Assembly: GCF_000014785.1 (NCBI RefSeq)
Contig: NC_008340.1
Coordinates: 2,610,001 to 2,642,000, forward strand
Source: Alkalilimnicola ehrlichii MLHE-1
Lineage (GTDB): Bacteria > Pseudomonadota > Gammaproteobacteria > Nitrococcales > Halorhodospiraceae
Reading direction: 5' to 3'
Length of the DNA stretch: 32,000 nt
Position numbers and translations under genes: made by a program. Positions 2,295 to 16,956 of the stretch are shown in pieces (within the stretch, counting starts at the first letter, position 1; every line of letters begins with the position of its first letter). Below the pieces are notes generated by a model that was not told the origin of the DNA, ran no database searches, and worked only from the letters and a program-made list of their open reading frames with translations.

Positions 2295-2546
2295 ATGATC
2301 GATCTCGCCCGCACGCCGAAGCAGGTCGGCAACCTCATCCGTCGAAGCCGGAAGCAACAGGGCCTTACCCAACAAGCGCTTGGGGCGAAGGCCGGTTACC
2401 GGCAGGAGACCATCTCGCTCATCGAGAATGGCCATCCGGCCGCCAAGCTGGAAACCCTCCTGGCTATCCTCGCCGCGCTCGATCTCGAACTCCGGATCGC
2501 ACCACGCTCCAAGGGAAGCGCCGCTGACATCGAGGACCTCTTCTGA
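2295..2546 (+). CDS. hipB: XRE-family HTH antitoxin, HipB-like (83 aa)
   Basis: HTH core QQGLTQQALGAKAGYRQETISLIENG. Its stop overlaps the hipA start (TGATG). An AT-rich leader lies upstream (2216-2294). Confidence 0.8.
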   Translation: MIDLARTPKQVGNLIRRSRKQQGLTQQALGAKAGYRQETISLIENGHPAAKLETLLAILAALDLELRIAPRSKGSAADIEDLF

Positions 2547-3859
2547 TGCCCCGGCGTCGGCGCCACCCTCCGCTACACGTCCTGCTGAACAACCGCCACG
2601 TCGGCCAGCTCCAAAAGGCGGTGGACGGTGCAATCAGTTTTACCTACGAGCAAAACTGGCTGGACTGGGACCACGCCCTACCCGTCTCGCTCTCCCTTCC
2701 CCTCCGCGAAGACCCCTACCGGGGTGCACCGGTGGCGGCAGTGTTCGACAACCTCCTGCCCGATGCCGAGCCGCTCCGCCGCCGCGTTGCCGAGCGCGTT
2801 GGCGCCGAGGGCACCGACGCCTACAGCCTGCTCTCAGCCATCGGCCATGATTGCGTCGGTGCCCTGCAATTCGTCGGCCCCGACGCCCCGGCCCCCGGCG
2901 ACACCACCCAAATTTCCGGCCAGGTCATTGACGAGGACGACATCGGGAGGCTGCTCCGGGGGCTGGCCCAGGCCCCACTGGGGCTGGACCGCGACGAGGC
3001 ATTCCGGATCTCCATTGCCGGGGTGCAGGAGAAGACCGCCCTGCTCCGGCATGAAGGCCGCTGGCTAAAACCCCACGGCACAACCCCGACCAGCCACATC
3101 CTCAAGCCTCAGATCGGCCAGTTGCCGAACGGCATCGACCTGTCCAACAGCGTCGAGAACGAATACTACTGCCTCAAACTGGCTGCCGCCTTCGGGTTGC
3201 CCGTCAACAGGGCCGAGATCCACACCTTTGGGCCCACCCAAGCACTCGTCGTCGAGCGCTTCGATCGCCACTGGACCCACGACGGCCGCCTGCTCAGACT
3301 CCCGCAGGAGGACTGCTGCCAGGCCCTATCCGTCCCGCCAACACGCAAGTACCAGACCGAGGGTGGCCCCGGTATCGTGCAACTTCTTGAACTGCTCAAC
3401 GGCAGCGACACCCCGGCCAAAGACCAGGCGACCGTCTTCAAGGCACAGATCTTCTTCTGGCTGATCGGCGCTACCGACGGGCACGCAAAGAACTTCAGCC
3501 TGTTTCTGCGGCCACAGGGCGCGTTTCGCCTGACCCCGCTGTACGACATCCTGACCGTCCAGCCGAGCCTTGCCGGCCGGCAAATCGAACGCAAGCAGAT
3601 GAAACTGGCCATGGCCGTGGGGCGCGGAAACCGCTACCGGATCCATGAAATCCAGGGCCGCCATTTCCTACAGACCGGCGCCGCCGCCCGCCTGCCGCGC
3701 ACCTTGGCCACCAACGTCATCGAGGACATAGTGACCCGCGCGGACAACGCCATCACGCAGGTCGAAAGCGCCTTGCCCCCCGACTTCCCCCCGGCAATCC
3801 ACGAAAGCGTGAAGGCGGCCATCGCCGGGCGCCTGGGGGTATTGCAGAGGGCGGGGTGA
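2546..3859 (+). CDS. hipA: HipA-family serine/threonine kinase toxin (437 aa), apparently intact
   Basis: Motifs ISIAGVQEKTALL, catalytic-loop-like GATDGHAKNFSLF and LTPLYDILT. The length matches HipA and the gene is coupled to hipB. Confidence 0.9.
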   Translation: MPRRRRHPPLHVLLNNRHVGQLQKAVDGAISFTYEQNWLDWDHALPVSLSLPLREDPYRGAPVAAVFDNLLPDAEPLRRRVAERVGAEGTDAYSLLSAIGHDCVGALQFVGPDAPAPGDTTQISGQVIDEDDIGRLLRGLAQAPLGLDRDEAFRISIAGVQEKTALLRHEGRWLKPHGTTPTSHILKPQIGQLPNGIDLSNSVENEYYCLKLAAAFGLPVNRAEIHTFGPTQALVVERFDRHWTHDGRLLRLPQEDCCQALSVPPTRKYQTEGGPGIVQLLELLNGSDTPAKDQATVFKAQIFFWLIGATDGHAKNFSLFLRPQGAFRLTPLYDILTVQPSLAGRQIERKQMKLAMAVGRGNRYRIHEIQGRHFLQTGAAARLPRTLATNVIEDIVTRADNAITQVESALPPDFPPAIHESVKAAIAGRLGVLQRAG

Positions 3860-8090: not shown

Positions 8091-8705
8091 ATGACCCGGG
8101 GCACTCGCAACGCACTACGGCCCTGCCCCGCCTGTGGCGAGGGTCGCCTGGAGCCCAGGCAAACGACTCAGCGGGCGGAACATGCCGGCCTCAGCGAGGC
8201 AATCCCATTGCACTACGCCGTGTGCGACACCTGCGGATCCGAACTCGCAGAAGCCCCCGAGGCGAAAGCCAACAAGCGCGCCATGACCGCATTTCGCAAG
8301 CGCGCCGATGGCCTGCTCACCGGGGCGCAGATGCGGCAGGCCCGCAAAGCGCTGGGGCTTACGCAGGCGCAGGCCGCAAAGCTGTTCGGCGGCGGCCAAG
8401 TAGCCTTCTCCCGCTATGAGAACGACGACATCACGCAAAGCGAGGCCATGGACAGCCTGGTCCGCGTTTGCCTGGCCCAACCAGCCAACCTGACATTGCT
8501 GGCTGACCAAAAGGGCGTCTCAGCAATATTCACAACGGACGACAACTGGGCCAACGCACTCGTGCGGCGCCACATCCTTGGCATCAAGAGCGCCCTGGAG
8601 CACCAGATCGCCCCGGACCGCGTTGCCGAGCCAAGCCCTCAAGACCCCTTGAAGCGACACGCCAAAGTCATTGACATTCAGCGTTGGAGAAAAGCCGCAG
8701 CATGA
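8091..8705 (+). CDS. mqsA: MqsA-type antitoxin: N-terminal zinc ribbon, XRE HTH and a long C-terminal extension (204 aa)
   Basis: CPACGEG...CDTCGSE Cys4 ribbon, then LTGAQMRQARKALGLTQAQAAKLFGGGQVAFSRYENDD HTH. There are about 65-70 extra C-terminal residues relative to the 131-aa E. coli MqsA. Confidence 0.8.
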   Translation: MTRGTRNALRPCPACGEGRLEPRQTTQRAEHAGLSEAIPLHYAVCDTCGSELAEAPEAKANKRAMTAFRKRADGLLTGAQMRQARKALGLTQAQAAKLFGGGQVAFSRYENDDITQSEAMDSLVRVCLAQPANLTLLADQKGVSAIFTTDDNWANALVRRHILGIKSALEHQIAPDRVAEPSPQDPLKRHAKVIDIQRWRKAAA

Positions 8706-10331: not shown

Positions 10332-10766
10332 ATGATGCGGACTCGAGCCCGCCCCAAAAGGAATTCCAAGCGCCGGCTACATCCTGAATTGACCGTCGAG
10401 CGGCGCCGGGCACTCGCCCAGTGTGTCAAATATGTCGGCAGCCCCTTGCACAAGCGCAACCCCGGTGATTTCGGGCTGACGCCGCCCGTTGCGGCCCGTC
10501 CCGGGAAGAGCCTGTGTGATGATGTCTCGATCTTCGAGCGAGACAAGGCTCAGGTGCTGCTGCGAGAGGGAGTGCAAGCGGGCCTTGTAAGCCGTGATGC
10601 CGACGAGGGCTTCCCGCGCCACATCTGGATGGTTCACGAAGGGCGAGTCATCGAGGCACGTTGTGACAACATGGAAGCCGGAACCTACCATGGCTACCCC
10701 CTGGAAGCCGACGATCCCATGGCCGATGCTGTAAAGCGCGAATGGAGCCGGAGGCAAGCAGAATGA
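10332..10766 (+). CDS. Hypothetical basic 144-aa protein, first gene of an unknown two-gene operon
   Basis: GGAGA RBS. Arg/Lys-rich N-terminus. Conserved-looking blocks YVGSPLHKRNPGDFGL and GTYHGYPL. Its stop overlaps the next start (ATGA). No family recognised with confidence. Confidence 0.6.
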   Translation: MMRTRARPKRNSKRRLHPELTVERRRALAQCVKYVGSPLHKRNPGDFGLTPPVAARPGKSLCDDVSIFERDKAQVLLREGVQAGLVSRDADEGFPRHIWMVHEGRVIEARCDNMEAGTYHGYPLEADDPMADAVKREWSRRQAE

Positions 10767-12097
10767 GCGATACCCTGCGATTCGACTGGGAGTGGCTGGC
10801 CTACCCAGAATTGCCTGCTGAAGAGGCTGTGACCTTTGCTGACCTGAGCATCCGGCTCAACGACAAGGCCATGACTCGCCTCTACGACGTGGCCGCCAAG
10901 ACCGAGCGCGACAACCTTTTCGCTGCCGCGTACCCGTTGGCTCAATTTCTAGCGGAAAACTGGTGGCGCATCCGCTGGGAGCCCGCGCCGGCCAGTCTTT
11001 CAAACGCGGGGCCACAGTGGCGTCTGGCGCATAACATCGCAGCCGCTGGTGCCGGCTATGTCTGGCCCAACATCACCTTCCACGGCGATGGCGAGCGGAT
11101 GTTCATGCACGTCGGACCCCACACCTCTGAGTCCTCCGCCGTGCAGTTCGTCTCGGAGGGAAATGGTGTGCTCGACGCCGCAATGTTCGAAGCAGAGGCC
11201 GATCGTTTCATGGAAGGCGTCTTGGCCCGACTGCAAGCCTGTGGCCACCCGGATACGGAGCTCGAACAGCTCTGGCGAGCGGTCCAGGCCGAGCGTTCCA
11301 GCAACGAAGACTGTGAGCGGCGGCGGCTGGAGGCCATGGCGGGCTTCGATCCCGACGAAGCGCCAGAGGCCATGCTGGACGAACTGTTGCAGCTCGAACA
11401 GCGCCTTGGGGTTTCAGCCATCCGAGAATTGGCTGCGGCCTCGCGGGCAAACACACTGGACCATGTGCGAACCCTGGAAGAGGCACTTTGTGCTCGGGGC
11501 CTTCGGTATCAGGTCCCGGATACGAGTCGAATGAGGATTGAATGGCCTGCCCCGCCATGGCGCAGGGCTGTCGAAGTCGCAAAGGCCGCTCGACAGGCCT
11601 GGGGCCTGAACAATGGCCCACTGGATAACACGCAGCTCGCCGCCATCGTGGATCTACCGCGCGAGCAGCTTGACTCTTCGGCACCTGAAGCAGTGCCCTA
11701 CAGCGCGAGCCTGCGCGGGGGGGAAGAGGGCGACAGACTAGTGTTCAGAACCGGCCATCGGCACGGACGCCGCTTCGCAATCGGTCGCCTGATGGGTGAC
11801 GCCTTCTACTCACCCGGGGAAGGGGGGGCACTGGCGGCCGCAACGGATGCCCGGACGGGACGCCAGAAGTTTCAGCGGGCCTTCGCGCAGGAGCTGCTGT
11901 GCCCATTCGAGGCATTGAGCGACTTTCTCAACCTGGGCCAGGACTGGGATGCATGTGACGATATCACCCCCCCGAACGAGGACCGCATCGAAGAGGCAGC
12001 GGAGTATTTCGACGTCTCACCGGTGCTCGTTCAGAGCACGCTTGTCAACCACAACGTCTTGCCCCGCGACGTACTCGAAATAACGGACGCCGCCTGA
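10763..12097 (+). CDS. Hypothetical 444-aa protein whose C-terminal region resembles an ImmA/IrrE (M78) domain lacking the HExxH motif
   Basis: GGAGG lies 8 nt upstream of ATG 10763. N-terminal block AAAYPLAQFLAENWWRIRWEP. The C-terminal GRRFAIGRLMGDAF...RQKFQRAFAQELLCPFEAL aligns with the M78 pattern RRFTLAHELGHLL...E.EANRFAAELLMP. Confidence 0.65.
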   Translation: MSDTLRFDWEWLAYPELPAEEAVTFADLSIRLNDKAMTRLYDVAAKTERDNLFAAAYPLAQFLAENWWRIRWEPAPASLSNAGPQWRLAHNIAAAGAGYVWPNITFHGDGERMFMHVGPHTSESSAVQFVSEGNGVLDAAMFEAEADRFMEGVLARLQACGHPDTELEQLWRAVQAERSSNEDCERRRLEAMAGFDPDEAPEAMLDELLQLEQRLGVSAIRELAAASRANTLDHVRTLEEALCARGLRYQVPDTSRMRIEWPAPPWRRAVEVAKAARQAWGLNNGPLDNTQLAAIVDLPREQLDSSAPEAVPYSASLRGGEEGDRLVFRTGHRHGRRFAIGRLMGDAFYSPGEGGALAAATDARTGRQKFQRAFAQELLCPFEALSDFLNLGQDWDACDDITPPNEDRIEEAAEYFDVSPVLVQSTLVNHNVLPRDVLEITDAA

Positions 12098-12121
12098 GAA
12101 CCCGAGGAGCCAAACAACACA

Positions 12122-12619
12122 CTGTCATCGCGAGGGCCGAAGGCTTTCCCCCGTCATCGCGAGCCCCCCACCCCGCTGCGCGGGCCCGAATCAACGAGGA
12201 ACGGGGCACCCCCGGTCATCGCGAGGGCCGAAGGCCCGTGGCGATCCAGGGCGGTAGACTGCCGCGTCGGCTTCGCCTCCTCGCAGTGACGGTGGGGGCG
12301 ACTTTCCGCTTCCGGCACAGTCAAGTTCTTCAAGAGGGCCGAAGGCCCGTGGCGATCCAGGGCGGTAGACTGCCACGTCGGCTTCGCCTCCTCGCAGTGA
12401 CGGGGTGGCCCCTCCCCCCGTCATCGCGAGGGCCGAAGGCCCGTGGCGATCCAGAGGGGTAGACTGCCACGTCGGCTTCGCCTCCTCGCAGTGACGGTGG
12501 GGATGGGGCCCCGCTCGCAGTGACGGTGTGGATGGGCCCCCGCTCGCAGTGACGGTGGGGGCGGGTCCGCTCCTCGCGGTGACGGTGGGGGCGGGTCCAC
12601 GCTTGCAGTGGCGATGAGG
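12122..12619 (+). repeat. Hairpin-repeat array A6: 1-2 short units, 3 full units (one carrying the 37-bp insert module), 4 3'-arm units
   Basis: Full units lie between about 12214 and 12495. TTCCGCTTCCGGCACAGTCAAGTTCTTCAAGAG is at 12300-12337. Reiterated GCTCGCAGTGACGGTGKGG-type units run from 12496 to 12619. Confidence 0.92.
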
Positions 12620-12648
12620 CACCACCACCCAAAAAGGAGAACACCACC

Positions 12649-14031
12649 ATGGACGACCCCACCCTCCTCCACCACGGCGGCGCTGACGGCGTCACCGGCA
12701 GTTGCCACCAACTCTACGCCAGCCCCGACCACTCACTCCTCATCGACTGCGGCCTCTTCCAAGGCGAAGACGCCGGCCCCGACCCCCTCGCCCAACACAC
12801 CGTCGACTTCGACGTCGACACCCTCCAGGCCCTCGTCCTCACCCACGTCCACATCGACCACGTCGGCCGGCTGCCCTACCTGCTGGCCGCCGGCTACCGC
12901 GGCCCCATCCTCTGCAGCCACCCCTCCGCCCACCTGCTGCCGCTGGTCATTGACGACGCCCTGCGCATCGGCTTCACCCGTGACGGCCAACTCATCGCGC
13001 GCTTCCAGCAGCAGGTCCAAAACCAACTGACCCCCCTCAAATACAGCCGCTGGCACACCGTCACCGACAACCGCCACCTCACCCTCAAGGTCCGCCTGGA
13101 GCGCGCCGGCCACATCCTCGGCTCCGCCTACGTCAAAGTCGCCATCCGGGACAAACGCACCGGCCGCACACACCGCACCGTCTTCTCAGGCGACCTGGGC
13201 GCCCCCGGCTCGCCGCTGCTGCCCGCCCCGCAATCGCCCCACCACGCCGACCTCCTCGTCCTGGAGGCCACCTACGGCGACCGCAGCCACGAAAACCGCG
13301 ACCAGCGCCGCCACCGCCTGCGCCAGGCCATCGAACACGCCGTGCAGGACGGCGGCACCGTCATCATCCCCGCCTTCAGCATCGGCCGCACCCAGGTGCT
13401 GCTCCACGAGCTGGAAGCGCTCACCCACACCGCCCAAGGCCCCTGGCGCCACCTGCGCATCATCGTCGACTCCCCCCTGGCCGCCCGCTTCAACCGCGTC
13501 TACCGCCGCCTGAAACCCTACTGGGACCAAGAGGCCAGAAAACGGGCCCGACAAGGCCGCCACCCCCTCAACTTCAGCCGCCTGCACACCGTCGACAGCC
13601 ACGCCCAACACCAACACACCGTCACCACCCTGGCCCAGGGCGGCCACCCGGCCGTGGTCATCGCCGCCAGCGGCATGTGCGCCGGCGGCCGCGTCGTCAA
13701 CTACCTGAAAGCCATGCTCGGCGACCCACGCCACCACGTGCTGTTCGTCGGCTACCAAGCGGAAGGCACCCCCGGGCGGGACATCCAGCGCTACGGCCCA
13801 ACCGGCGGCTGGGTAGACCTGGACGGAGAACGGTTCGACATCCGCGCCGGCGTCACCACCATCGGCGGCTACTCCGCCCATGCAGACCAACAGGACCTAC
13901 TGCGGTTCGTACAACAGATGAAGCGCCCACCCGGCACCATCCGACTGGTGCACGGCAGCGCCCGCGCCCGGGAGACACTGGCCAACGCCCTCACCCGGCA
14001 GGGCCATACCGTGACCCAGGGAGGGTCATGA
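12649..14031 (+). CDS. Beta-CASP family metallo-beta-lactamase-fold nuclease (RNA-metabolising MBL hydrolase), 460 aa
   Basis: AAAGGAGAA RBS. LLIDCGLFQG, HxHxDH motif LTHVHIDHVGRLPYL, later SGDLG, IPAFSIGRTQ, GYSAHADQ and RLVHGS, typical of beta-CASP enzymes. Confidence 0.85.
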   Translation: MDDPTLLHHGGADGVTGSCHQLYASPDHSLLIDCGLFQGEDAGPDPLAQHTVDFDVDTLQALVLTHVHIDHVGRLPYLLAAGYRGPILCSHPSAHLLPLVIDDALRIGFTRDGQLIARFQQQVQNQLTPLKYSRWHTVTDNRHLTLKVRLERAGHILGSAYVKVAIRDKRTGRTHRTVFSGDLGAPGSPLLPAPQSPHHADLLVLEATYGDRSHENRDQRRHRLRQAIEHAVQDGGTVIIPAFSIGRTQVLLHELEALTHTAQGPWRHLRIIVDSPLAARFNRVYRRLKPYWDQEARKRARQGRHPLNFSRLHTVDSHAQHQHTVTTLAQGGHPAVVIAASGMCAGGRVVNYLKAMLGDPRHHVLFVGYQAEGTPGRDIQRYGPTGGWVDLDGERFDIRAGVTTIGGYSAHADQQDLLRFVQQMKRPPGTIRLVHGSARARETLANALTRQGHTVTQGGS

Positions 14032-14076
14032 CTTCAGAGGCCCGGCACTCCCGCCACGGCGGGGCCCCGCCCCCTC

Positions 14077-14399
14077 CCCCGTCACTGCGAGCGCCGAAGG
14101 GGCGTGACAGTCCATACGGCGTGTGGATCGCCGCGTCGCTTCGCTCCTCGCGATGACGGGGGCGGCGCCCCCACCGTCACCGCGAGAGCGGACCCGCCCC
14201 CACCGTCACTGCGGGCGGGGGCCCATCCACACCGTCACTGCGAGGAGGCGAAGCCGACGTGGCAGTCTACCCCTCTGGATCGCCACGGGCCTTCGGCCCT
14301 CGCGATGACGGGGGAAAGCCTTCGGCCCTCGCGATGACGGGGGAAAGCCTTCGACCCTCGCGATGACGGTGAGAAAGCCCTCGGCCCTCACGATAACGG
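14077..14399 (-). repeat. Hairpin-repeat array A7, inverted orientation: type-B, 3 3'-arm units, 1 full unit, 4 short units as read on the + strand
   Basis: Reverse complements of all unit types are present, e.g. GGAGGCGAAGCCGACGTGGCAGTCTACCCCTCTGGATCGCCACGGGCCTTCGGCCCTCGCGATGACGGGGG and GAAAGCCTTCGGCCCTCGCGATGACGGGG reiterated. Confidence 0.9.
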
Positions 14400-14514
14400 A
14401 AGCACCACCCCCAACTAATCCTTCCGATAGGTTGCACCGCACCATCCCCCATGCTTTACTCCCTAACATCGTTCACCCAGTGAACGACACAACCCTTCGC
14501 ACCCCCCAAGGATG

Positions 14515-14560
14515 GCCGTGCCACCGCATGTCATCCTTGCGGTAGCGTGCCCGAAAGCCG
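14515..14560 (+). repeat. Left copy of the 46-bp direct repeat flanking the ATPase/DUF4276 module
   Basis: GCCGTGCCACCGCATGTCATCCTTGCGGTAGCGTGCCCGAAAGCCG, 45/46 identical to 16355-16400. Confidence 0.9.
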
Positions 14561-14657
14561 GCACCAGGATATGAAAGCAGACGGCTCCCAAACGACATGC
14601 GACAAGGTTTTGGGACCCTACACGTATTGAGGCACACCGAATGAAGGGACTGATTCA

Positions 14658-15788
14658 ATGACATCGGAATCGGACCTGTGTAGCCGAATTTCACGCGTGA
14701 GCATCCGCGGGTTCCGTAGCCTAGCCTGTGTCGAGAACCTTGAGCTCCCGCAACTAGCGGTCCTGATTGGGGCAAACGGATCGGGCAAATCCAACCTCAT
14801 CCGATTCTTCGAGATGCTGAGCTACTCGCTCAAGGGCCGGAACCTTCAGCAGTTCGTGATCGAAAAAGGGGGCGGTGACGACCAGCTCTTTTTCGGAGCG
14901 CGGACCACGTCCCGCCTGGAAGCAGAGATCGCGCTGGAGACTGAGCAGGGCACCAATGAGTACCGGATGGCCCTGACCCACGTCGCACCAGACTCCCTGG
15001 CCTTCGCCGAAGAGGCTTTCCGGTTCTCCCGGCACGACCGCGAAGGCAGCAGCGACTGGATTCACCTCCCCATGCCGGCTCAGGAATCGGGCCTGCCGGT
15101 GGCCGCAGCGGATAGTGGTCAGCGGTCGCGGCGCACAGCACGCACGCTCCTTTACCTGCTGCGCAACTGCGCCACCTTCCAGTTTCATGACACCTCGGCA
15201 AAGGCCAGTCTGAACATGCGCTGGGATGAGAGCGAAAACGCACGCATGCGCTCGGATGGCGGAAACCTGGCCCCCATACTGCTGCATCTTTCTCAGGAGC
15301 ATCCCCGGCGTTACCGGCTCATCACGCGGCAGATTCAACGCGTTCTCCCCGTGTTCGAAGACTTCGACCTGCAATCGACGGGGGGCAAGGTGTTGCTGCG
15401 CTGGCGCGCCCGAAACAGCGACAACACCTTCGGGCCGCATCTGACATCGGACGGCTCGCTGCGACTGTTTTGCCTATTCACCCTGCTCAATCTGCCGGGG
15501 GAAATGCTCCCGGACGTACTCATGATCGACGAACCGGAACTGGGCCTTCATCCGCACGCTATCGCCCTGACCGCCGATATGCTCAAGAGCCTCTCCGTCC
15601 ATCGGCAAGTCTTCATCGCCACCCAGTCACCACTGATGGTCGACGCCTTCGACGTGGATAACATCCTCGTCGCCAGCCTGAAAGACGGCGCAACAGACCT
15701 GACGCCCATGGACCGTGACGAATACCGGGTCTGGCTTGAAAGCGGCTACCAGCCCTCGGATCTATGGCTCAAAGAACCGGTGGGCTGA
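14658..15788 (+). CDS. AAA_21/ABC-type (SMC-like) ATPase, 376 aa, defence-associated type
   Basis: Walker A LIGANGSGKSNL close to the N-terminus, distal Walker B LLMIDEPELGLHP and signature-like TSDGSLR. This split-ABC architecture is typical of OLD/AbiL/PARIS-type ATPases. Confidence 0.85.
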   Translation: MTSESDLCSRISRVSIRGFRSLACVENLELPQLAVLIGANGSGKSNLIRFFEMLSYSLKGRNLQQFVIEKGGGDDQLFFGARTTSRLEAEIALETEQGTNEYRMALTHVAPDSLAFAEEAFRFSRHDREGSSDWIHLPMPAQESGLPVAAADSGQRSRRTARTLLYLLRNCATFQFHDTSAKASLNMRWDESENARMRSDGGNLAPILLHLSQEHPRRYRLITRQIQRVLPVFEDFDLQSTGGKVLLRWRARNSDNTFGPHLTSDGSLRLFCLFTLLNLPGEMLPDVLMIDEPELGLHPHAIALTADMLKSLSVHRQVFIATQSPLMVDAFDVDNILVASLKDGATDLTPMDRDEYRVWLESGYQPSDLWLKEPVG

Positions 15789-15791
15789 GTG

Positions 15792-16354
15792 ATGAGTTCC
15801 AGTGTTCGATTGCTTGTGGTCTGCGAGGGACAGACAAGGGCGGAGGAAACGTCAACATCGAGCGACTGGCTATCCACCTGGCCAACGAATACCCCAACCA
15901 TGACTTTGTCACCACGTTGGTCGACCTCTACGGGTTCAGTGACCGGGAAGGACGAAGTCGGACAGAGCTTGAAGAGGCCATCCGCGAAGCCGTCCTAAGC
16001 CGTCGTCGAGACATTCAGACGGATAGAGTCATCCCGTATGTGCAGCAGTATGAATTCGAAGCGCTGCTGTTCAGCGATATTCAGGGTTTTCAATGGGTGG
16101 TTGATGGCTGGTCCACTGGGGCAGAGCGCCAACTTCAGAGCATCGTCGATAATTACTCGGACCCCGAGCAAATCAACGACAACCCGACCACCGCGCCCTC
16201 GAAACGCCTGGAAGCCATCTTCCGCGGTTACTATCGGAAGACCGAACATGGCCCGATCATTGCCGAAGAAATCGGGTTGGCAGTGATCCGCAGTCAGTGC
16301 CCAGGCTTCGACGGTTGGATAACCAAACTGGAAGGCCTTAATCGACCGCGTTAA
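15792..16354 (+). CDS. DUF4276-family (TOPRIM-like) protein interrupted by an apparent single-base frameshift near 15849-15851
   Basis: The N-terminal hallmark MSSSVRLLVVCEGQTRAEET is in frame 3 (15792-15851). The rest, VNIERLAIHLANEYPNHDFVTTLVDLYGF...EFEALLFSD...PSKRLE, is in frame 2 to TAA 16354. The only frame-2 ATG (15764) overlaps the ATPase gene and lacks the VxCEGxTE block. Confidence 0.7.
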
Positions 16355-16400
16355 GCCGTGCCACCGCATGTCATCCTTGCGGTAGCGTGCTCGAAAGCCG
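16355..16400 (+). repeat. Right copy of the 46-bp direct repeat, starting immediately after the DUF4276 stop
   Basis: GCCGTGCCACCGCATGTCATCCTTGCGGTAGCGTGCTCGAAAGCCG. Confidence 0.9.
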
Positions 16401-16433
16401 ACCCCACACGTCACCGGGGGCCCCACACCCTCA

Positions 16434-16628
16434 CCCCGTCAATGCGAGCCCCGAACCCTTCACCCTCGTCACTGCGAGCCCCCGAAGGGGGCGCGGCAGT
16501 CCACCGCCCTGGATCGCCACGGGCCTTCGGCCCTCGCGATGACGGGGGAAAGCCTTCGGCCCTCACGATGACGGGGTGATGCCTCCCCACCGGCCCTGCG
16601 AACCGCCAAAAGGGGCGCGGCAGTCCAC
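16434..16628 (-). repeat. Hairpin-repeat array A8, inverted and degenerate (about 1 full unit plus arm units), abutting the glycan locus
   Basis: CCCTCGTCACTGCGAGCCCCCGAAGGGGGCGCGGCAGTCCACCGCCCTGGATCGCCACGGGCCTTCGGCCCTCGCGATGACGGGGG plus GAAAGCCTTCGGCCCTCACGATGACGGGG. It ends 5 nt before ATG 16633. Confidence 0.8.
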
Positions 16629-16632
16629 AACC

Positions 16633-16956
16633 ATGACCCGCGAAGAAATCCAATTCCGCATCCTGCGCCTACTCCAGGACAACCCCCAGCTCAGCCAGCG
16701 CGACCTGGCCGCCGAGCTGGGCGTCTCGGTGGGCAGCACCCACTACTGCCTGCGCGCGCTGGTGGACAAAGGCTGGGTCAAGGCCAACAACTTCGCCAAG
16801 AGCACCCGCAAGACACGCTACCTGTACCAGCTCACCCCCAGCGGCATCGCCGAGAAGGCAGCGCTGACACGCCGCTTCCTAAAGCGAAAGCGCGAGGAAT
16901 ACCAGGCCATCCGGGCCGAGATCGCTGAGCTGGAAAAGGACCTGAAAGACCAGTAA
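16633..16956 (+). CDS. MarR-family EPS-associated transcriptional regulator (107 aa)
   Basis: MTREEIQFRILRLLQDNPQLSQRDLAAELGVSVGSTHYCLRALVDKGWVK...YLYQLTPSG is a winged-helix pattern typical of the EPS-locus MarR subfamily. The upstream part of the ORF (from 16576) lies in repeat sequence. Confidence 0.8.
   Translation: MTREEIQFRILRLLQDNPQLSQRDLAAELGVSVGSTHYCLRALVDKGWVKANNFAKSTRKTRYLYQLTPSGIAEKAALTRRFLKRKREEYQAIRAEIAELEKDLKDQ

Follow-up and report, generated by a model that had tools for sequence, protein, structure and literature searches.

In Alkalilimnicola ehrlichii MLHE-1, the window analysed (32,000 nucleotides of contig NC_008340.1, positions 2,610,001 to 2,642,000 of the forward strand) contains at its positions 14658-16354 what is, by profile matches and gene order, a module of two genes that belongs to HEC-01, a candidate anti-phage type in PADLOC. 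HEC-01 (Hma-embedded candidate 01) combines an ABC ATPase with a TOPRIM protein and was described as a candidate located within Hma defence loci; in the one published assay it failed to protect against the phages used (Payne et al., bioRxiv 10.1101/2024.01.29.577857). The window shows the same order of genes, an AAA_21 ATPase (gene A) followed by a DUF4276/TOPRIM-like gene (gene B), and the matches to the HEC-01A and HEC-01B profiles are very strong (E 6.1e-110 and 3.5e-120, respectively). DUF4276 has been assigned to the Toprim superfamily (PMC12065111) and appears in the PARIS phylogeny as one of the TOPRIM-type domains that accompany AAA15/21 ATPases (PMC11464382). The former role of the module would have been that of an ATPase-controlled nuclease. 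The features of the locus are listed in Table 1.

Table 1. Features of the HEC-01 module in the window and example regions of related loci
Feature	Position	Strand	Basis or remark
Left copy of the 52-nt direct repeat bracketing the module	14515..14566	+	94% identical to 16355-16406
HEC-01A ABC-type ATPase gene, 376 aa, AAA_21, apparently intact	14658..15788	+	Pfam, PADLOC, motifs
Frame-2 ORF annotated in NCBI, 196 aa, 'DUF4276 family protein'	15764..16354	+	identical to P0001
Frame-3 ORF, 69 aa: 15 native residues, then out-of-frame sequence	15789..15998	+	frame translation
5' remnant of DUF4276 (HEC-01B), frame 3, codons 1-15, MSSSVRLLVVCEGQT, CEG Glu E12 kept	15792..15836	+	alignments
Deletion junction, exact placement ambiguous by a few bases	15836..15838	+	DNA alignment, tblastn
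3' remnant of DUF4276, frame 2, equal to orthologue residues 48-219 plus stop	15839..16354	+	tblastn, Pfam, conservation
Right copy of the 52-nt direct repeat, starting at the base after the DUF4276 stop	16355..16406	+	repeat search
Example regions after the ATPase match in related loci (L005-L043)	L021:5090-5140, L040:5100-5200, L014:5092-5373		

The ATPase gene, closed by TGA at 15786-15788, encodes a protein that matches Pfam AAA_21 (E 6.3e-27) and covers positions 4-358 of the 363 positions of the HEC-01A profile; it is therefore scored as present and full-length. The Walker A (GANGSGKS), Walker B (VLMIDE) and signature (SDGSLR) motifs were all found, and the ATPases of the closest orthologous loci, L044 and L045, are equal to it in length. 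Weaker matches were obtained with the AriA, Old and GajA profiles in the PADLOC search, as well as with MAD3 of NCBIfam (E 1.8e-29) and mad3 of PADLOC (E 4.5e-22). The systems of the OLD/PARIS type (P2 Old, Gabija GajA, PARIS AriA/AriB) follow the same logic of an ABC ATPase with a TOPRIM-superfamily effector. However, the effector of the window is DUF4276 rather than DUF4435 or Toprim_Old, and compared with the HEC-01 matches, those to these systems are weaker by 80 to 95 orders of magnitude. In MADS (methylation-associated defence system), Mad4 is a DUF4276 homologue (PMC12065111) and the window ATPase matches MAD3, but its 103 bits fall far under the MAD3 equivalog cut-off of 420, and the genes next to the pair, for a β-CASP hydrolase and a MarR-like regulator, include neither a methyltransferase nor any other component of MADS. 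The module also differs from HEC-01 in two respects: it lies outside Hma, between a β-CASP metallo-β-lactamase gene on one side and MarR-like and dTDP-rhamnose genes on the other, and its gene B carries a frameshifting deletion of 94 nt, which leaves the pair incomplete.

In its position, gene B of the window resembles that of the intact systems. ATG 15792 stands 3 nt past the ATPase stop, and the same spacing was found in L044 and L045, whose 376-aa ATPases each have an intact DUF4276 partner, of 219 or 230 aa. Translation together with the Pfam and PADLOC matches confirmed the original prediction that the DUF4276 gene is split over frames 3 and 2. Frame 3, read from GTG 15789 or ATG 15792 (GTG ATG AGT...), gives (V)MSSSVRLLVVCEGQTRAEETSTS... 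and has no stop before 15998. Frame 2 reads ...KGGGNVNIERLAIHLANEY... and ...DKGGGNVNIERLAIHLANEY... up to the stop at 16352-16354; upstream it is closed by TGA 15737, and the sole ATG, GTG or TTG that it contains before 15900 is ATG 15764, within the ATPase gene. This start scan agrees with the earlier statement that a frame-2 product can begin only at that ATG and lacks the CEGQTE block. The first 24 codons of the frame-2 ORF are out-of-frame readings of the 3' end of the ATPase gene and of the DUF4276 5' remnant, and no Shine-Dalgarno-like purine run is present in the 20 nt upstream of ATG 15764.

The downstream reading is clearly recognizable as DUF4276. The frame-2 ORF matches Pfam DUF4276 (PF14103) with 144.9 bits (E 4.6e-42), passing the gathering threshold of 30.2 bits, and the reading that matches HEC-01B is adjacent to HEC-01A on the same strand, but disrupted. 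The Pfam match extends over profile positions 36-192 in the frame-2 ORF and 47-192 in the 'restored' protein that results from joining the two frames, compared with 1-192 in P0002, the closest orthologue. The N-terminal (C/V)EGxTE..FV block, at profile positions 1-35, is unmatched in the window, and the DUF4276 domain is accordingly not of full length. The intact orthologues begin with M..(R)LLVVCEGQTE, as does frame 3, and not with the N-terminus of frame 2; the possibility raised with the original prediction, that the frame-2 beginning might be the native one, is not borne out by them.

The break itself had been described as a one-base frameshift at 15851. A switch from frame 3 to frame 2 at this base does give the 187-aa reading that had been proposed, but the alignments show a gap of 94 nt at 15836-15838 instead. 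The DUF4276 gene has lost 94 nt (3n+1) near its start, both the size and the position of the loss being seen in the DNA alignment with L044 and L045. In this alignment the window has a single gap of 94 nt (columns 67-160), located between ACA 15834-15836 and AGGGCGG 15837-15843 and flanked by ...GGACAGACA and AGGGCGGAGGAAACGTC...; the size of 94 nt assumes that the segment had the same length in the ancestor as in all the closest orthologues. Homology to the orthologues ends in frame 3 at ACA 15834-15836 (T15) and restarts in frame 2 at 15836/15839 (K/Q47, G48). By tblastn, the frame-2 homology runs from base 15836, which corresponds to residue 47 of P0002, and shows 72% identity to P0002 residues 47-218. 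In the protein alignment, frame 3 matches the orthologues through ...LLVVCEGQT and frame 2 from (Q/K)GGGNV, with 32 empty columns between them. Since 94 is 3 x 31 + 1, the loss removed about 31 codons and shifted the frame. The residues RAEET that follow in frame 3 are an out-of-frame reading of the GGGN codons and do not belong to the N-terminal motif. The true junction lies at 15836-15838.

The length of the family members gives the same picture. The search for DUF4276 homologues returned 1083 with E <= 1e-5, and their typical length is 212-220 aa, compared with 187 aa of the 'restored' reading. A frame switch that can be fixed by a single base should be compared with orthologue length before an indel or recoding is called. 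A sister or ancestral allele did not appear in the protein search, where the nearest match had 62% identity, or in the scan of genome contigs with the ATPase, where the nearest had 60%; the exact-match scan of metagenomes with the 24-mer left of the junction gave 0 matches. In the orthologue L045, an 8-nt direct repeat, GGGCAGAC, is present at both ends of the corresponding segment (L045:2382-2389 and 2477-2484, nt 37 and 132 of the P0006 gene), being read as G-Q-T on the left and, in another phase, as G-R-Q on the right. This arrangement is suggestive of slippage between such 8-nt repeats as the mechanism of the deletion, although the copies in L045 are 95 nt apart as against the 94 nt deleted, and the junction of the window is not exactly reproduced by them.

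A frameshift directly past the start of a gene is a common artefact, and the deposited sequence could in principle have lost a base or a longer stretch while the true genome carries an intact DUF4276 gene. This is highly improbable, given that the 121 nt around the junction (15780-15900) occur unchanged in CP183314.1 and in three further assemblies, those of SRR32708590, SRR9436228 and SRR9436229; over 1098-2201 nt, all four match the window with 100% identity. CP183314.1 is a second complete genome of 3,264,331 bp, compared with 3,275,944 bp for the longest contig carrying the annotated protein P0001, and the short-read assemblies are three independent ones from two SRA series. Furthermore, the lesion comprises 94 nt in non-repetitive sequence, so a homopolymer miscall is not involved. 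The four other assemblies may share one strain; their agreement excludes a sequencing error, and a change in the laboratory stock could still have taken place.

The consequences of the deletion were assessed through conservation and a structural model. The alignment of 70 intact family members has 31 invariant columns and 41 with a conservation of at least 90%. The window retains 29 of the 31 invariant and 37 of the 41 near-invariant residues, and each loss falls within the deletion: the invariant E16 and F19 and the near-invariant C23, P26, L28 and G45. In the AlphaFold model of P0002 (pLDDT 92.4, pTM 0.88), the protein starts with a β-α-β-α-β arrangement consisting of β1 (5-11), α1 (14-29), β2 (33-39), α2 (54-67) and β3 (70-76). 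According to this model, the deleted residues 16-47 (about 31 codons) are helix α1, the core strand β2 and the loop after it. The invariant residues of the family include E12, directly past β1 (5-11), and later D76, E119 and E121; in the window E12 is present only in the frame-3 remnant. This glutamate of the CEG motif, placed by the model on the β1-α1 turn, is stranded on the detached remnant of 15 codons. The TOPRIM assignment of DUF4276 rests on PMC12065111 and 10.1101/2024.01.29.577857. In the Foldseek comparison with PDB and BFVD, no match with E <= 0.001 was obtained and no TOPRIM protein was among the top PDB matches, and the profile search of PDB sequences found nothing.

These losses bear directly on the repair that had been proposed for the gene. 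Restoring one base, or a -1 shift, does not repair the protein, as the 187-aa product still lacks E16, F19, C23, P26, L28 and G45. Programmed -1 ribosomal frameshifting that joins frame 3 to frame 2 into a functional protein of 187 aa has next to no probability. Frames 3 and 2 are both open across the junction, and a GGAGG string lies at 15842-15846; internal Shine-Dalgarno-like strings stimulate frameshifting. However, a slippery heptamer of the X XXY YYZ type is absent anywhere in frame 3, in agreement with what had been noted earlier, and there is no downstream structure, since the 65 nt of 15836-15900 fold no better than shuffled sequences (z = 0.06). In the intact orthologues one frame encodes the whole protein, so a recoding site is not conserved in them, and the fused product would in any case be devoid of 31-32 conserved residues, E16 and F19 included, and of two core elements of secondary structure.

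The DUF4276 half of the module is best regarded, with a probability of about 90%, as an ordinary pseudogene next to an intact ATPase half, and the function of DUF4276 has presumably been lost. The single internal deletion of 94 nt right after codon 15 leaves the 172 codons behind it in the -1 frame. Normal coupling from the ATPase stop to ATG 15792 would then give a 69-aa peptide; a start at ATG 15764 would give a 196-aa protein without β1, α1 and β2, and hence without the strand of the CEG glutamate; and a frameshifted reading would give a protein without α1 and β2. With α1, β2, E16 and F19 missing, no route of translation would be expected to yield a functional protein. Of the options considered at the outset, inactivation of the module was upheld by the deletion evidence, while sequencing error was set aside by the identical junction and recoding by the lack of its signals.

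Outside the deletion, no conserved residue has been changed, and no further stops or shifts were found. Since the conserved residues there are intact, the deletion is probably recent in evolutionary terms. The 172 intact C-terminal codons fit a recent deletion, yet taken by themselves they are also compatible with a residual role of the truncated product. The frame-2 product, either of 196 aa or from a shorter internal start, could have kept a non-catalytic role such as binding or regulation of the ATPase, in which case the deletion would have been neo-functionalising. Apart from the undecayed C-terminal codons, this reading is favoured by the fact that the frame-2 ORF happens to reach an ATG, by the NCBI annotation of its product as a protein, and by the recurrence of truncated partners beside ATPases in other loci. 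It is nevertheless very unlikely. ATG 15764 lies inside the ATPase gene and has no recognizable ribosome-binding site, and the product would lack β1, α1 and β2 of a four-stranded core, which, judging from the model, makes stable folding unlikely. Preservation of the 3' part is predicted equally by a recent deletion, and the remnants in other genomes differ from one another, with often far more drastic truncation, which favours decay and speaks against a selected form. Decay to a pseudogene has implications for annotation: the 196-aa 'DUF4276 family protein' of NCBI is the out-of-frame tail of a broken gene and needs to be corrected, and defence-system finders would score this genome as having a complete HEC-01 pair though the effector is dead.

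The state of the DUF4276 gene was compared in 39 related loci collected with the ATPase as the query, of which one was cut by a contig end, leaving 38 assessable. A full-length, single-frame DUF4276 gene follows the ATPase in 18 loci; in 13 the gene has been disrupted, be it by internal deletions, by frameshifts or by truncation, and in the remaining 7 it went undetected by tblastn. The ATPase is a single full-length match in 14 of the 20 loci with a defective DUF4276 gene (14/38 overall). In several of the 7 loci, the first codons of gene B are still seen directly after the ATPase stop, as in L021 (VTRLAIVVE*), L040 (VIRLAIVVEGSRRR...) and L017 (VIRLGISVEGQTEESIV...). Several remnants keep only the first 9-17 codons and end just past (V)VEG, near the breakpoint of the window. 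The TOPRIM partner evidently decays often, and A. ehrlichii is not an exceptional case. These counts refer to loci ascertained through the ATPase, many of which belong to related Spirochaetia MAGs, so that the events are not independent. The isolate names of the MAGs suggest long-read assemblies; if so, the cases with a frameshift only may be due to sequencing errors.

The lesion in A. ehrlichii could further be taken as an instance of a recurrent and selected loss of HEC-01B beside a full-length HEC-01A across distant phyla, which is considered rather unlikely. If this were the case, the effector would be costly (self-toxic) and repeatedly purged, with the orphan ATPase keeping a function of its own. 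ATPases found without an intact TOPRIM partner may reflect the cost of the effector, a pattern that is only sketched by the present loci.

The genomic setting of the module differs from its surroundings in composition. The GC content of the module is 58.7% as against 68-70% in the flanking genes, and the closest relatives of either protein, which belong to unrelated phyla, share only about 60% identity with it. The two copies of the 52-nt direct repeat that bracket the module are identical over their first 36 nt, and this 36-mer matches twice in the window, compared with 0 matches expected. The low GC content, the repeats and the distant relatives are together consistent with horizontal acquisition. 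In the module, translation of the TOPRIM-like DUF4276 protein (HEC-01B) would be coupled to that of the ATPase (HEC-01A) ahead of it. The 52-nt repeat could mark the route of insertion of such a cassette. The repeat gave no match in Rfam, was absent from all of the non-Alkalilimnicola loci fetched, and its core gave 0 matches in the exact-match scan of metagenomes. When folding was compared with shuffled sequence, the left copy alone did better (z = -2.6, as against z = -0.6 for the right copy). The short-read Logan contigs break within the 52-nt repeats.

Upstream of the module are genes for a β-CASP metallo-β-lactamase-fold protein, HipA and an MqsA-like protein; downstream are the MarR-like gene and the dTDP-rhamnose genes. 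Since HipA-like and MqsA-like genes are found nearby, the HEC-01 remnant lies in a variable accessory region beside the dTDP-rhamnose genes. The upstream features, at 2546-3859, 8091-8705 and 10742-12097, comprise two genes of toxin-antitoxin type, one for a HipA-like kinase (Pfam E 2.4e-54) and the other for an HTH antitoxin resembling MqsA (E 2.6e-17), together with a 451-aa ORF that had no Pfam or NCBIfam match. The β-CASP gene, at 12649-14031, is located between inverted blocks of 149 nt (12415-12563 and 14166-14314) that are 93% complementary. REP-like palindromic units of about 29 nt, with the core ...GTCATCGCGAGGGCCGAAGGC..., form dense arrays at 12100-12620, 14070-14400 and 16420-16640, where they occur in both orientations.
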